The position numbers and the translations under genes were made by a program. A model generated the notes under the pieces. That model made no database searches. It was given only the letters and a program-made list of their open reading frames with translations, and was not told where the DNA came from. A stretch of DNA of 63,992 bases, filler included, from Bonamia ostreae (Eukaryota): NCBI GenBank assembly GCA_040357525.1. It is 9 parts of 9 records of this genome, joined end to end, with 100 filler letters (N's around TTAATTAATTAA, not from the genome) between each part and the next. Parts side by side here need not be neighbours in the genome. Positions count along the whole stretch, not along the records: positions 36,995 to 44,185 come from JBDODL010000091.1; 8 more parts are not named here. One strand, given 5' to 3'. Every line of letters begins with the position of its first letter. Within the stretch, counting starts at the first letter, position 1. Below are positions 7,423 to 58,784 of this stretch, one piece after another.

Positions 7423-7522
7423 NNNNNNNNNNNNNNNNNNNNNNNNNNNNNNNNNNNNNNNNNNNNTTAATTAATTAANNNNNNNNNNNNNNNNNNNNNN
7501 NNNNNNNNNNNNNNNNNNNNNN
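7423..7522. other. Artificial contig-joining spacer (N44-TTAATTAATTAA-N44)
   Basis: Six-frame stop linker between N runs; genes on both sides are truncated. Confidence 0.98.
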
Positions 7523-14881: not shown

Positions 14882-14981
14882 NNNNNNNNNNNNNNNNNNN
14901 NNNNNNNNNNNNNNNNNNNNNNNNNTTAATTAATTAANNNNNNNNNNNNNNNNNNNNNNNNNNNNNNNNNNNNNNNNNNNN
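14882..14981. other. Artificial contig-joining spacer
   Basis: Same 100-nt N/TTAATTAATTAA/N linker. Confidence 0.98.
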
Positions 14982-22239: not shown

Positions 22240-22339
22240 NNNNNNNNNNNNNNNNNNNNNNNNNNNNNNNNNNNNNNNNNNNNTTAATTAATTAANNNNN
22301 NNNNNNNNNNNNNNNNNNNNNNNNNNNNNNNNNNNNNNN
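22240..22339. other. Artificial contig-joining spacer
   Basis: Same linker. Confidence 0.98.
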
Positions 22340-29585: not shown

Positions 29586-29685
29586 NNNNNNNNNNNNNNN
29601 NNNNNNNNNNNNNNNNNNNNNNNNNNNNNTTAATTAATTAANNNNNNNNNNNNNNNNNNNNNNNNNNNNNNNNNNNNNNNNNNNN
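29586..29685. other. Artificial contig-joining spacer
   Basis: Same linker. Confidence 0.98.
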
Positions 29686-36894: not shown

Positions 36895-36994
36895 NNNNNN
36901 NNNNNNNNNNNNNNNNNNNNNNNNNNNNNNNNNNNNNNTTAATTAATTAANNNNNNNNNNNNNNNNNNNNNNNNNNNNNNNNNNNNNNNNNNNN
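36895..36994. other. Artificial contig-joining spacer
   Basis: Same linker. Confidence 0.98.
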
Positions 36995-38330
36995 GAAAAA
37001 TTAAAAAGTGTGAGCTTGGAAATCATATAATAAGTCTTTGTGCTATTAACAGAAGATTTTATTAATAAAGAATCCCCATCTTCTTTCCAACTAAACTTAA
37101 CGCTTCCAGCTGACAATCTTTTGCTTCTAATCGATCTCGAAAAACTTTGAAGATAAAGTAGCAAAACTTCGGGAAATTGTAAACTGTCACTTTTGAAAGA
37201 CATTCCTTCGATATCAAATTTTGAAAGTCAAATTTAAAAAAGTCAATTTAAAATTTTGTTGAATTTTAAAATTAAATTGTACTTTGTTTTTGCTCTTTAG
37301 AAATAAAGCGATTCGTCCATTCGAAGCGGACATTGAGAAGCTTTTGAGCAAGAACGAAGTGTTTTTGTTTGCAGATTCGCCCTCTGTCGCTGAAGCATCG
37401 AAAACAAGAAATGGTTCAAAAATTGTTGTTTTTTCCGGTGCGTCGTCCGCGTTGAAAAAAAGTAATTTGTTTTTTTCATTGTAACAAAAAATGCTTTTCC
37501 CCTCAAAATCGAGCCATTTGAAAAACGGCCAATTTTCCGTATTGAAATTTTTCATGATCAGAGCGAAAATGATCTGAAATAAAAATCGTCCAAACTTTGT
37601 CGTGTACGATATCTCGTATTGTCAAGTTGGGCTCTTCCGCGTTTTGAAACTTATTCAACGAAACTAAAAATCTGTTGTTCGGGGAAATGTCTATTTCCTG
37701 AATATACTCTCTTTCCTAAATTTTAAAATTGAAAACAATTCTCCGTTTGTACATTATCGCGTCTGTGTTTGGAGAATTGTTCAGTTGGATTTTTGTTATC
37801 ATTTCTTCCAACTTTTTGTTATCGGATTCTATTTTCTCGCACCTTTCGGCGGTAACAAGTTTCTTTTTATTTTGGTGCGTTAATATCGCTAAACGATTCA
37901 AAATTTAATTTTTGAGGACTAGAGAAAAATTTTTGTTGATTAGAAAAAATTTTTTGTTGAATTTTGGTAAATGCAAACGAAGGAATATATTTTTTCGAAG
38001 GTTGCGCTTTTATAGATGTAAATAGAAAAATTATCGATAACGCCAATAAGAGAGCTATCGCGGCTCAAAACTATTTTGCGCGTAGTCTGGCCTCTTTAAA
38101 ATAAAAGAAGAAACTCTAAAAACGGTTTTAGGGCCGGGCCGGATTTGTTCGCTGGACTAAAGCTATATTTTGCTTCTTCGCGAACTTTTGGTTTACAGAA
38201 TCTTGCAAACTTAAAATTGTCTGAGGAATTGACATCTAGCGCGGAGAGCCGGGAAACTTAGCTTTATAATATATTTGGATGTGCTAAAATTTTAAAGCTT
38301 TTTAACAGTATTTGCTAAACTTTTGAAAGT
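36995..38330 (-). CDS. EIF2A: Translation initiation factor eIF2A (WD-type), 3' truncated; 5' end approximate
   Basis: EEPNLTIRD..KNFNTENWPFFKW and SAGSVKFSWKEDGDSLLIKSSVNSTKTYY match eIF2A propeller motifs. Confidence 0.6.
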
Positions 38331-38447
38331 AGTGATTTGTCGACTGTGAGAATAATGAAGATAAGTTTTATGATATGATTGTATAAGTTTGGAGAAAGAT
38401 TTAACAAAAGGAATTTATCGATATTTTCAAAAATCAATTAAAAATAT

Positions 38448-38692
38448 TTAATATTCGTTTTCCGGTTTTTGAGTTGGTAGAAGCTTAAATCGTTTTTTGC
38501 ATTCGATTCGTTGTTTTGAATAGACATCGTCTGGGGAGAACTTTGCTATTTGGTCGTTTGGTGAAAACCTGGATGCGCGGAGATAGTGTTGATTTCTTTC
38601 CCGGAACAAGAGCAACTTTCCTTTAAGTAAAGATGGCAAATTTAAACTTTAAGAGTGTATTTTCCACAACAAACAGTACGCATCAACAGCAT
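38448..38692 (-). CDS. NOP10: H/ACA RNP subunit NOP10 (3 exons)
   Basis: Spliced product [64 protein letters not shown]; introns 38621-38647 and 38546-38568. Confidence 0.92.
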
Positions 38693-38782
38693 TTTGAATT
38701 TAGCCTTTATTCAACTTGTTGTTTAATGATTTGGGATATAGTAAAGTTGACTAAAAAATCGTGATCTTTAACATTTTCAGAA

Positions 38783-39941
38783 ATGGTCGAAATCTTCAAA
38801 CAGTCCGAATTAAAGATCATTGACGATTTTCTTAAAAAGTTTTAAAACGGAAAACAATATTTTAGCGATATCACAAACGAACTTTTGAACGAGAAATATA
38901 GCGGGAAATCTCAGTTGTCAGCATACGAACCCAAAAAGTTTAATGCTTTATTTTAGGAAAAAACGTAAATTCGCCTGTAGAACGGAATACCGCACTTATA
39001 CGCCAGAACCGAAAATTTTGCCGAAAATGCTTTCTATTCCAGTCGAAAACACTTTTATGGCTGAATTTTCAGGCACCTCGATTGAACTTCTGAATCCGCT
39101 GAAAATGCCAGATATTAAACTCGGCTCGACACAAACTGATCTGGGCACCGTTTTTAAACCGGCTCCCAGCAATCTCTCGGCCACGCTGACTAAAGAGCAA
39201 CGAGAAGTTTTGTACGGGCCCGAAAAAATTAAAATGACCGAAAAGGCAATTGCGGAAAAAAGTTCCAAACAGTCCAAAAAACTTCATCGTTTTACAATAT
39301 ACATACATCTAATCACTAAAAACGGTTCTACCGAACCATCAAAGCATTTAAAACTATAACGAAAACAGCTAATATCTTAAGCTACTTTACTCCTAATCTA
39401 TTTGCAACAAAAAGCCGAATCCTCAAATGATAACCTAAAAGCCATCGGCAACGTTGACGAATATGTTTCAAAGTGTTTAAAAAATCCAAACAACGATCGA
39501 AAAGCGAAAATAATCTGCTCCAAACCGATCTTTTTCAGAGAAGCTTTTGGCGAAAAAGAGTTTTCCTGATCAAAAACAAAAGAATAAAAAGAGTAATCTT
39601 CAACGACAACGTTGACAAAAATCACAAGTTCTCTCTTTTGCACAACAGAGACGACGACAATTTTGGTCTGTACGCCAAAGACGTTTTCCCGCTTATTCTT
39701 AGAAAAGCAACGACGGAAACTACGATTTGGTCAGCGAATACAAAAAAAGCAACGACGGCGCCGCGCCTCCGCCGGGCAGAAAAAATGTCCTTATTGTCGG
39801 AAAAAATTTTGCCGATTTTGTCATTATCGACAGCGATTTGCGGCTTAAAAGAAGACCGCCGACAACTGTTTCCAAAAACCAACTTTGAAAAAGTACGATT
39901 TTGAAGAAGACCAAAGACTCCCACCGCACTTAAAAATATAG
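38783..39941 (+). CDS. PAF1: Paf1-like Pol II elongation factor, multi-exon
   Basis: KFACRTEYRTYTPEPKILPKML..FSGTSIE resembles the Paf1 N-terminus; C-terminal IDSDLRLKRR. Confidence 0.55.
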
Positions 39942-39949
39942 TTACTCGT

Positions 39950-40639
39950 TTACTTGTACCCCAACTTGTCCAGTTTGTCCGCGTAATATCGTCTTGCGAC
40001 TTTTTCGCCGAGTCGCTTCATGTAATCTCCGATAAAATATGGCTTTTCGTTAAATTTCAGAGCGTACTCGATTCTAGTTCTGGCAAAAGTGACCCTGTCG
40101 CTGTCGAACTTGGATTCGAACTTCTCCATTCCGGGGATCTCCGCGGGAACTTCGACTCTGCGGATGTCCTGGCAAATGTAGGCGTAAACGCGGACGATCT
40201 TGTCGTCTGAAAAGTTTTCGATGGCGCATTTTATCGCTTTCGCGCAACGGATGTAATCTCTCTTTTTGTCGTCTTCTTCGAGCAAATTGGCGGGCAAGTC
40301 CAAGCCGTGTTTTTTAAACTCGTCTCGATAGGGCAGTTCCTTCGGGATTTCCTTCAGTTCGTCGAGTCGCATTTTGCTGATTTGCAGACTGTGTTGTTTC
40401 AAGTCGGAAAATTTGGCTTTGTTGATTTTTTTGATCGTGTCGAGTTCTTCTTTGTAGTAAAATTTGGGGGCGATTTTGTCGAGTCTTTGGATTAGTGTTT
40501 GGAATGCAAACTCTTCCTCTTCTTTGATGAGGTGCGTTTTTTCGACGTGTTCGAAGCGTTTTTGTCTGAACGCGCAGAAAGCGCTTCTAGTGACAATTTG
40601 TGTGTTTGTGCGTGTTAAGGATCTTTTTATTTTGAGCAT
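39950..40639 (-). CDS. Hypothetical protein with possible mitochondrial presequence
   Basis: 229-aa ORF; N-terminus rich in R/K/S/T and free of acidic residues. Confidence 0.65.
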   Translation of the reverse strand: MLKIKRSLTRTNTQIVTRSAFCAFRQKRFEHVEKTHLIKEEEEFAFQTLIQRLDKIAPKFYYKEELDTIKKINKAKFSDLKQHSLQISKMRLDELKEIPKELPYRDEFKKHGLDLPANLLEEDDKKRDYIRCAKAIKCAIENFSDDKIVRVYAYICQDIRRVEVPAEIPGMEKFESKFDSDRVTFARTRIEYALKFNEKPYFIGDYMKRLGEKVARRYYADKLDKLGYK

Positions 40640-40864
40640 TAAGCTGTAAGAAGTTTAGGATTTTGTGTTTATGTGGTTTCGCAAATTGAATGTTTTAGCA
40701 ATTCTGTTAATTTTGCTGTTGCAGGTCAACCTTTTTAATTATTTATTTGTAAGTCGATTTTTTTATAAATCTGATTGCTCATTTATTGAAAATTATTAAT
40801 TTTAAGCTTTATTTTTGATTTAGTAGAGCTTATAAATTTTAGATTTTTTGTATAACAAAAGAAA

Positions 40865-41632
40865 ATGATGCGGTTTTGCTATTTGTTGTCGCTCTTTGCT
40901 GTTTTGGCTTCAATGGCAGTTAACTCATGTAAATTTTGCCCTTTTCTCGACAATTGTTTTAGAGAATTTCCTTCTAAAACAAAACTGCACGTTTTTGGGC
41001 ATTATGTAGATTTTAACAATTTGAACGATTTCTTCGTATTTTTAACGTTTAGTTTCATTTTTTGTGGCATCCTTCTACTTAACAAACCGCGAAAGTTCAA
41101 AATAGACATGGCCCTGGCGATAATTATTTGCTACTGTTTCTATCTCGGAAACCACTTAATGGTTTTTCTTCTCAAATTTCTGTTTGGCGATTCTAATTGC
41201 AACACAAAACCAAATAGCGTTTCTGGCCATTTCAACTTCTACGTTTATTTCTTGCTCTCCCTTCGACACATTTTCACTGCTTTCAAAGTTTTTTCAGTTC
41301 AAAACAGAAATCTCAAGTTGAAGAAAAATTTTTCTTTCTGGAAACTAGTTATGTCTTCTTCGCATTGTTGTCATTTTTGAACCTCTCNNNNNNNNNNTAT
41401 GAATAAAGGCTCTTTGTCACATGTCTTTTACTGTTCAGTCTTGTTTCCAATGGTCTTGCAAAGAAAGGGCAAGAAAACAGCTCTAAAGATAGCGTTGGTT
41501 TTCCAAGCGACGTTTGCTCTGCTTTTAATCTTATTCAAAATACACAATGTTTTGTTCGAAAAAGGGCATCTCTTTGTCGGCAGTTATCTGTTATATTTTT
41601 TGATAATAAATATCCGTTATCATTTTGATTAA
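40865..41632 (+). CDS. Polytopic membrane protein, possibly PAP2/FIT-like
   Basis: Several TM segments; SVSGH motif; internal N gap. Confidence 0.45.
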
Positions 41633-44185: not shown

Positions 44186-44285
44186 NNNNNNNNNNNNNNN
44201 NNNNNNNNNNNNNNNNNNNNNNNNNNNNNTTAATTAATTAANNNNNNNNNNNNNNNNNNNNNNNNNNNNNNNNNNNNNNNNNNNN
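44186..44285. other. Artificial contig-joining spacer
   Basis: Same linker. Confidence 0.98.
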
Positions 44286-45206: not shown

Positions 45207-45825
45207 TTTTTGTACTTTATCGATATTTTTAAGATTGAACTCGCTTTTCTGGTTTGCGGCGCTTTTCTATATTTCCGCAATTTTTAGATTTAGCCGAATT
45301 ATCAAAATTTAAAAATTATTTGTTTGCAAAAAAATGTAAATTTATCATTGTCGATTTTNNNNNNNNNNNNNNNNNNNNNNNNNNNNNNNNNNNNNNNNNN
45401 NNNNNNNNNNNNNNNNNNNNNNNNNNNNNNNNNNNNNNNNNNNNNNNNNNNNNNNNNNAAAATTTAAAAATTATTTGTTTGCAAAAAAATGTAAATTTAT
45501 CATTGTCGATTTTTATCGTTTTGCAAAAAAATCTAAATGTGCCAAATTGGTAAAAGTATTTTCACAAAACTTCAAACTGGCTCAAATTTGCAAATTGCTT
45601 TTTTTGTTACATTGTCAAATCATTTTTTATCAAATTACTTTTGAATATTAAATATTTTAAAAACATTTTTAAATAACCCTTCAAAAAATTATCGTAGATG
45701 AAACATTTTTATGATTTTAACATTTTTAAAAAAAAAACATCGTAGATGAAGCGGAGAATTTTGAATTTAATTAAAAATCGTTACGAGAAAAAACTGCGAT
45801 ATAAGTTTAAGCACAATTAGTCAAA

Positions 45826-51441: not shown

Positions 51442-51541
51442 NNNNNNNNNNNNNNNNNNNNNNNNNNNNNNNNNNNNNNNNNNNNTTAATTAATTAANNN
51501 NNNNNNNNNNNNNNNNNNNNNNNNNNNNNNNNNNNNNNNNN
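51442..51541. other. Artificial contig-joining spacer
   Basis: Same linker. Confidence 0.98.
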
Positions 51542-55445: not shown

Positions 55446-56521
55446 TACAAAATATTTTAAACCTTGTTGAAATATTTTAACAATAAGGTAACTATCGAAT
55501 TATCGCCATACTTAATCATAAATGGCTGTATTCAATCAACGCCCGTATATTTTGTCAGATTTAAAAATCTTAATGATTGAGGTAGTTTCTAGAATGATTG
55601 GTGCACTCAGTATTTTGAATCTATCAGTTTTATTCCTCCCATTCCTCATTTCTATTTGATACAATATTTTGTCCTGAGATCTTAATTTAGAAAGGTATTC
55701 GACTATTTTTTCATGTCTTGTTTTCATCTAATATAGGTTTCATCAATTCCTATTTTATCTGAATTTTCTTTTCGAAACCTGTTTTTGGCCATTTTAATAC
55801 CTTTTCTAGATTTCTATATCTTGATTTCTTTGCGATTTTCTTCTAAGTTTCAGCCTTTTTTTAATTTATCCTTTCGGTCGATTTTTGAAGAGATTATGTA
55901 AGCCGCGATTCTTCTTCATGAGCTATTTTTACGATTACTCTGCTTTTCTGTATTTTTTACGATTTACTTTGGAGATGTTCAATTTAACCTATTTGAACGC
56001 ATTGTTGAATTTTTGGAGCTTTTTCTTCGAAACTATGTTACGAAAATAGATGTTGAATAAAATAGGGTGAGAGTGCTATCTTATTAAAATTATCTTTAGT
56101 TTATGAATCTGAAAAGAAAGATATTGCAATATCGCTAAAAACCATTCTAATTAGAAAGGATCTTGAAACGCCATTTTAATTAGAACGTTTTGAACTTTCG
56201 TTCTAAGAATATTTCTAGAAATTATTGATAAAAAATGTTTTGAAAAGAGACGAATTTTCGACCAAAAAACATTCTGCCACGCAATTATACAGAACTTTGA
56301 TGAGAATTTACATTAAAAATCTCTACAATAAAAGAACATAAAACAGTCATTTCCAAAAAAAAACAAAAAACAAAAAAAGGGCTAAAAACGAACACATCCC
56401 ATACCACCCCAAAAACCAGCCATTCTGGTTGTTCACACCATCGCTCATCAAAAAAAGCTAAAAGCTAAAAGCACAAATACACCACAAACCATTAAAAGCC
56501 AATTAAGAATAGGTTAACTTA

Positions 56522-57470
56522 ATGGCGCTTCCCCGCGAAAACCACAAAACATCCTACATGCGCCGCTTCGTCGTCAAATACAAAAGAAGGAGACAGTGCA
56601 AAACGAACTACAGAAAGCGCGCCCGCCTCGTGGCACAGTACAAAAACAAGTACGAGACGAACAAATACCGTCTGGTCGTCCGGAAAACGAACAGAGACAT
56701 CATTTGCCAAATCACCTCGTCCGACCTTTCAGGCGACAAGTGCCTCGTTTCCGCTTATTCGCACGAACTCAAACGGTACGGCGTCCCCTGCGGACTCAAG
56801 AATTATCCCGCCGCCTATTGCACCGGAATGCTGCTGGCCAAGCGGCTTTACGCCAAGCTCAAAAAGGAGGTCGAAAGTGTCGCCGAAGTCAACGGTGAGT
56901 TCTATCTCGACGACGAGTCCGGCGCGTTCAGAGCGTTCCTAGACACCGGTCTCGCGCGGTGCTCGACCGGCGCCAATATCTTCGGCGTCCTGAAAGGGGC
57001 CGTAGACGGTGGCCTGAACGTGCCTCACAACACGAGGCGGTTTCCGGGATCGACTTTCGAGAAGAACGACGACGGCGTGAAGCAGTGGGAATACGAACCC
57101 GAAGCGCACCGCGACAGAATTTTCGGAGTGCACATCGCGGAATATATGCGAAAGCTGGAGGGAGACGATCCCGAGAAATACAAAAAGCAGTTCGGGTTGT
57201 TCATAAAAGTTTTGAATGACATTGTAGAACAAAATCGGGGCGGACGATATCGAGCAGATGTACCGGAAGGCGCACGACAAAATCAGAGCGAATCCTTATG
57301 TTCAGAGAGACAGCAAAGAACTGGGCTATTTCAAAGCGAACAGGAACAAGCCCAGAAAATCGGCGGAACAACATAATAAAACGAGAAAAAGCTTCCGAAT
57401 TAAAAAACTGACGGGGAAAGAAAAAAAGCAGAATGCGCTAGAAAAGCTTGCAGCAGTTGAAAATAAATAA
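56522..57470 (+). CDS. RPL5: 60S ribosomal protein L5 (uL18)
   Basis: KYRLVVR, AYSHEL, NYPAAYCTG, GAVDGGLNVPH; a 19-nt intron at 57209-57227 restores the frame to the MYRKAH tail. Confidence 0.97.
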
Positions 57471-58684: not shown

Positions 58685-58784
58685 NNNNNNNNNNNNNNNN
58701 NNNNNNNNNNNNNNNNNNNNNNNNNNNNTTAATTAATTAANNNNNNNNNNNNNNNNNNNNNNNNNNNNNNNNNNNNNNNNNNNN
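58685..58784. other. Artificial contig-joining spacer
   Basis: Same linker. Confidence 0.98.

Follow-up and report, generated by a model that had tools for sequence, protein, structure and literature searches.

NOP10, subunit 3 of the H/ACA ribonucleoprotein, is a small protein of an RNA pseudouridylation machine, in which it grips the pseudouridine synthase Cbf5/dyskerin. In archaeal Nop10 (Pyrococcus; PDB 2aus, 2ey4 and 2hvy), four cysteines arranged as CxxC/CxxC form a C4 zinc ribbon, and a proline follows the first ligand of each knuckle. In the accessible parts of two reviews, the zinc ribbon is called unique to archaea, and the plain hairpin is described as the eukaryotic solution (PMC7991803, PMC1865073). 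One telomerase review, as far as its available portion goes, loosely gives NOP10 a zinc ribbon (PMC9736166). Searches of the literature on Nop10 with zinc, cysteine or protists turned up no description of a cysteine-bearing eukaryotic Nop10.

We found a NOP10 gene with four cysteines in its N-terminal hairpin. The gene is on the minus strand at 38692..38448 of the window (the whole stretch of 63,992 nucleotides that was analysed). It has three exons and a product of 64 amino acids (195 nt after scripted joining of the exons). Its features are:

38648..38692, minus strand: exon 1, read from its translation; start codon and residues 1-15 (15 codons), including Cys8, Cys9 and YTLK; ends CCGKYTLK
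38621..38647, minus strand: intron 1; 27 nt, GT..AG, phase 0, with an in-frame TAA inside
38569..38620, minus strand: exon 2; 52 nt, residues 16-32 and the first base of codon 33, including Cys18 and Cys20; starts ESCSCSG, ends SAHP
38546..38568, minus strand: intron 2; 23 nt, GT..AG, phase 1, within the Ala33 codon
38448..38545, minus strand: exon 3; residues 33-64 and the TAA stop, with KFSPDD ... KKRF ... LLPTQ (linker and eukaryote-type C-terminal tail)
38606..38671, minus strand: cysteine cluster; codons 8 and 9 (38671-38666), 18 (38614-38612) and 20 (38608-38606)

The gene model held up well. The coordinates 38448..38692 and the peptides given in the original prediction were exact: the ATG is at 38692, the TAA stop is at 38450-38448, and the translations of the exons agree. 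The proposed splicing with two introns was likewise supported by GT..AG ends, by a frame that is intact after removal, and by conserved positions and phases. Both have to be removed, since a stop codon interrupts the frame within intron 1 and reading on through intron 2 would change the frame. There is no AG dinucleotide within exon 1, and the frame is closed by a stop 7 codons before the ATG, so the cysteine pair is not separable from YTLK by other splicing. For exon 2, splicing at the next AG, 5 nt further on, would mean the loss of SAHP. A different first exon had been raised as a possible objection. Among 4450 six-frame peptides of the whole window, however, there was no other Nop10-like N-terminal exon, and only the three NOP10 pieces resembled Nop10. 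The claim that the ORF track misses the gene was correct for the spliced gene, which is absent from it, but a 63-aa ORF with a TTG start (38448..38639) is listed and consists of exon 3 plus intron read-through.

Judging from the sequences compared, both introns are at positions and phases that recur in other eukaryotes. A [CT]AG acceptor stands directly before the Lys19 codon, matching intron 1 in both position and phase, in 11/11 metagenome NOP10 loci that were picked because their reading frame opens at that place. At the Ala33 codon, an AG occupies the same phase-1 place as in intron 2 in all 3 of the 3 loci (L078, L082 and L095) picked in the same way, for a frame opening at the intron 2 place.

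The product is a NOP10, as originally proposed. The exon 3 ORF alone matched Pfam Nop10p (PF04135) at 32.8 bits (cut-off 27.2 bits; E 7.2e-8). Against a local profile built from 94 eukaryotic NOP10, scores were 74.6 bits for the spliced protein and 53.7 bits for exon 3 alone. The core motifs are all in register (the YT[LM]K strand, [SV]AHP, the [RK]FSP[DE]D linker and the conserved arginine of the C-terminal helix), and 64 amino acids is within the stand-alone Nop10 size of about 50-70 residues. The C-terminus, with KKRF and the LLPTQ tail, is of the eukaryotic type that had been predicted. Since the Cbf5-binding linker and the tail are ordinary eukaryotic ones, the protein should do an ordinary job. 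R34, the linker arginine, and K40, the lysine that follows FSPDD, are identical in 120/120 eukaryotic relatives and are K and V here. Because these invariant residues have changed and the whole protein is evolving fast, its odd residues need not all be functional. A word-indexed protein search for a close orthologue, using the exon 3 ORF, gave one candidate, a canonical protein with 74% identity, and no orthologue from a sister species. No stretch of DNA resembling this one turned up either in the collection searched. We conclude that the locus is almost certainly a real, working NOP10 gene.

We found that the four cysteines (residues 8, 9, 18 and 20), which flank YTLK as had been noted, lie in the two loops that hold the archaeal zinc ligands. 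With archaeal rows as the scaffold of the alignment, Cys9 is in the column of archaeal zinc ligand 2 and Cys18 is in that of ligand 3. Cys8 is one residue before ligand 2 and Cys20 is one residue before ligand 4; in the columns of archaeal ligands 1 and 4 this protein has Thr and Ser. An archaeal profile aligned to residues 3-24 without gaps, and both loops are identical in length to the archaeal ones around YTLKE, with a Gly after each Cys loop as in archaea.

The match to archaeal Nop10 is incomplete. The cysteine motifs here are CC-G and C-x-C-x-G, that is CC and CxC, whereas archaeal Nop10 has CxxC/CxxC; two CxxC knuckles (typically CPxCG) are not present, and neither is the proline that follows the first ligand of each archaeal knuckle. 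This NOP10 also has two extra residues before SAHP, and its C-terminus is eukaryotic. On the archaeal profile, residues 1-29 scored 15.4 bits, compared to 37-48 bits for true archaeal N-termini, and this score rests largely on two cysteines, YTLKE and Gly. On the eukaryotic profile, the same residues scored 1.1 bits. In contrast, the N-termini of 318 eukaryotic relatives among the matches listed scored at least 17.5 bits on the eukaryotic profile, and at most 13.5 bits on the archaeal one; the canonical eukaryotic profile barely sees the hairpin described here. Since residues 1-29 score low on both profiles, the N-terminal domain is neither canonical eukaryotic nor truly archaeal.

Archaeal Nop10 varies in its own ligands. 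In 18 archaeal loci picked by the motif AHPARFSPD, which makes them a biased subset, all four cysteines of CxxC...CxxC were present in 10 and three were present in 8, in line with the archaeal pattern described in the original prediction. Loci L002, L005, L006, L010, L013, L014 and L019, mostly labelled Methanomicrobiales or relatives, have Asp for zinc ligand 2 (C-P-x-D), and a Nitrosopumilales locus (L004) is without ligand 4. In the ESM Atlas, the clusters recovered with an archaeal Nop10 were all Nop10, and all of them archaeal or untaxed.

We compared the hairpin with canonical eukaryotic NOP10 (human, PDB 7bgb; yeast, PDB 1y2y and 3u28) and with 318 eukaryotic NOP10 that have a recognisable core, taken from protein searches (best 120 of 238, best 150 of 1249 and best 120 of 5917). 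Much is shared with the canonical protein: the length of 64 amino acids, SAHP, FSPDD, KKRF, LLPTQ, both intron positions, the PF04135 match and the N-terminal start M-x-L-M, which is eukaryotic in type. The hairpin is different. The distance from the start to the Tyr of YTLK is 11 here and 13-15 in the 318 relatives, and that from the Tyr to AHP is 18 here and 14-16 in the relatives, with one at 22 (both among the matches listed). The hairpin is 3 residues shorter before YTLK and 3 residues longer after it than in eukaryotic relatives. The canonical aromatic pair (positions 5-6) is replaced by Arg-Thr and the R-V before YTLK is replaced by Gly-Lys. Besides the loss of the aromatic pair, the protein differs from the canonical form by the gain of four cysteines and by the changes of R34 to K and K40 to V.

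No eukaryotic relative that we sampled has a similar set of cysteines. Human and yeast Nop10 are without them in the alignments, as the original prediction had said. Two or more cysteines between 12 residues before the Tyr and AHP were found in 0/318 eukaryotic NOP10 among the matches listed. The cysteine-free hairpin occurs, among the same matches, in animals (cnidarians, sponges, an annelid and many others), fungi, plants, algae, amoebozoans and other eukaryotes. A metagenome scan gave 581 stretches with 355 relatives, and the best 80 of 355, ranked only by likeness to exon 3, were kept. From these 80, a cysteine in the last 10 residues before AHP was found in 0/75 loci in which that stretch was readable, and a cysteine at the N-terminus in 0/23 loci in which a single frame covers the complete N-terminus. 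The proteins listed by the searches and the metagenome loci kept were all canonical. Frequent occurrence of such cysteines in eukaryotic Nop10 would have counted against the prediction; they were absent from the 318 proteins and the 75 loci, in samples that favour canonical forms, the DNA patterns having demanded canonical motifs.

Two other observations came from these comparisons. Some fish and frog NOP10 (P0278, P0281, P0285, P0295 and P0296) have a single cysteine in the archaeal ligand-3 column, in C-P-x-G, which identifies the P-x-G turn of eukaryotes as the counterpart of the CPxCG knuckle of archaea. A contig assigned to a Rickettsiales MAG (L001:383-595) encodes a canonical eukaryotic NOP10 that has an in-frame TAA where relatives have Gln and that ends in TGA. 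It looks like ciliate-code DNA binned with a bacterium.

The clustering of the cysteines is more than expected by chance. In the Pfam-supported ORFs of the window, 57/3203 residues (1.8%) are Cys. At this frequency, the binomial probability of at least four cysteines in 9 free positions is ~1e-5, and none of 3059 control windows of 13 residues from these ORFs had four or more. On the strength of their number and placement, we put the view that the cysteines bind a metal, most likely zinc, at just under an even chance. The spacing is against it, being CC/CxC and not CxxC, as is the missing proline of the classic CPxCG knuckle. CxC pairs bind zinc in some proteins; two neighbouring cysteines rarely bind one zinc.

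Our results might also indicate that this is a real NOP10 whose cysteines hold no metal. A loosely constrained hairpin could have drifted or been reshaped in a fast-evolving parasite, with the cysteines serving as small hydrophobic residues or having a redox or other role. We regard this as a credible alternative, although somewhat doubtful. It is consistent with the divergence at positions that are invariant in 120/120 relatives, with a cysteine spacing unlike that of the classic knuckle, with the single ligand-3-column cysteine that fish and frog NOP10 have without any ribbon, and with the 46/57 ORFs of the window that have no Pfam match, which fits fast evolution. The eukaryotic hairpin is also described as only partially stable in the available part of one review (PMC7991803). 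Drift does not readily account for a cluster with a probability of ~1e-5 and no counterpart in 3059 control windows, for cysteines exactly in the two loops of the archaeal zinc site, for loop lengths that are now archaeal, or for the loss of the aromatic packing residues at the same time.

Whether a metal site would be old or new depends on the lineage. Under the standard code, the window has 24 discrete ORFs of at least 200 amino acids, one of them of 766 amino acids. Its genes are eukaryotic housekeeping genes (importin-beta, a cyclin, RPL5, Utp21, a UCH peptidase, mitochondrial carriers and ERGIC-type lectins). For the RPL5 ORF (56513-57373), the top-scoring solved structure was an octopus ribosome protein (9EHO), at 239.8 bits, followed at 228-234 bits by proteins that we take to be from frog, fish and mammals. 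There was presumably no ciliate ribosome among the 60 best RPL5 matches, which also speaks against a ciliate origin. Such an origin had been considered for the tiny introns and was ruled out by the long discrete ORFs under the standard code. Importin-beta matched solved structures from human and mouse at 327 bits, Chaetomium at 270 bits and yeast at 194 bits. The assignment of 9EHO to octopus is from the part of PMC13321053 that is available. The closeness of RPL5 to octopus is a hint of spiralian ancestry, which could mean a dicyemid.

Based on these two proteins and on intron size, and not on a phylogeny, the genome appears to come from a parasitic animal, myxobolid or dicyemid, that is evolving fast. 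According to the accessible part of one paper (PMC13644364), the only animals with introns of less than 30 nt are myxobolid myxozoans and Dicyema japonicum. A search for Rfam families in the window found none. Of the ORFs of at least 110 amino acids, 46/57 had no Pfam match at E 1e-5, which fits a fast-evolving lineage or many non-coding frames.

Because the genome looks animal and the sampled animals are cysteine-free, secondary gain of the cysteines is far likelier than retention. We consider it likely that they were gained secondarily. Retention would mean that an archaeal-type site was never lost and that two of its ligands slid by one residue, giving a degenerate ancestral zinc ribbon. 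The loop lengths and 2/4 cysteine columns do match archaea. This explanation is nonetheless improbable, since the genome appears to be animal (from RPL5, importin-beta and intron size, the last by comparison with the available part of PMC13644364), the sampled eukaryotes are cysteine-free in this region (0/318 proteins and 0/75 metagenome loci, among the matches listed), the start is the eukaryotic M-x-L-M, the intron positions are common eukaryotic ones, and two reviews, in the parts we could consult, place the ribbon in archaea only (PMC7991803, PMC1865073). The original prediction had left both origins open. The animal-looking genome, the lack of anything alike in 318 sampled eukaryotic NOP10 (among the matches listed) and the M-x-L-M start argue against a retained ancestral site. 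A re-evolved site with compressed spacing fits the CC/CxC arrangement and the animal-looking genome, with zinc as the putative ligand.

Our preferred reading, which we hold tentatively, is that a parasitic animal lineage rebuilt a metal-braced NOP10 knuckle. This would be a convergent reversal, with an unorthodox CC ... CxC ligand set and with archaeal loop lengths restored. In the sequence of events that we envisage, ancestors would have replaced the archaeal zinc ribbon by a plain hairpin. The hairpin would then have been rebuilt in this lineage, with the aromatic packing pair lost and the loops changed to archaeal lengths. Four cysteines would have been gained in two loops that face each other, the equivalents of the loops that meet at the archaeal zinc site. 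A metal, probably zinc, would now stabilise the domain in place of the hydrophobic packing that was lost, and the parts that grip Cbf5, the linker and the tail, would have stayed ordinary eukaryotic.

If this convergent reversal is correct, the small NOP10 domain can switch between an archaeal zinc ribbon and a eukaryotic plain hairpin, and the gene would be a natural test of what the N-terminal domain needs for work with Cbf5, Nhp2 and guide RNA. If the cysteines bind nothing, it is no more than a divergent housekeeping gene of a genome that evolves fast.

We found that introns as short as those of NOP10 are normal in this genome. Contigs of one run (X1), which we guessed to be RNA, were placed on 36995-41387. 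In the genes flanking NOP10 (36995-38173 and 39937-41387), these contigs were without 23, 22, 21, 21, 27 and 20 nt at 37145, 37574, 37715, 38094, 40485 and 41288, respectively. The conclusion about intron size follows from the loss of these 20-27 nt stretches from RNA-like contigs. Stretches of 77 and 116 nt (CT..AC on the plus strand) were also skipped in the flanking genes. Among the X1 contigs listed, none crossed either NOP10 intron, and bins 38612-39934 were empty. One X1 contig, with a depth of 1665, was placed only on 38434-38498 (65 bases; exon 3 and just past the stop) and runs from 38498 back to 38434, with TT at the joint. This contig may be a cyclic assembly artefact, or it may hint at a poly(A) site ~14 nt past the stop codon.

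A wrong gene model (a true transcript with other exons) or a pseudogene is very improbable: although no X1 contig crosses either intron, bins 38612-39934 are empty and the annotated product of this gene is absent from the protein collection, the reading frame is open throughout only once both introns are taken out, none of the core motifs is missing, the introns lie at conserved positions and in conserved phases, there is no alternative exon in 64 kb, exon 1 holds the cysteine pair and YTLK with no internal acceptor, and the contig piece of depth 1665 on 38434-38498 lies within exon 3 and just beyond the stop. As it stands, the NOP10 gene is a worked example of introns of 23-27 nt at ancient intron positions, and of a type of gene that is easily overlooked by gene callers.

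The window also contains several stretches of N. Pairs of 44-N blocks, 12 bases apart, occur about every 7,350 bases (7423-7522, 14882-14981, 22240-22339, 29586-29685, 36895-36994, 44186-44285, 51442-51541 and 58685-58784), and these look like masking and not assembly gaps. A 10-N stretch (41388-41397) and a 100-N stretch (45359-45458) look like ordinary scaffold gaps.
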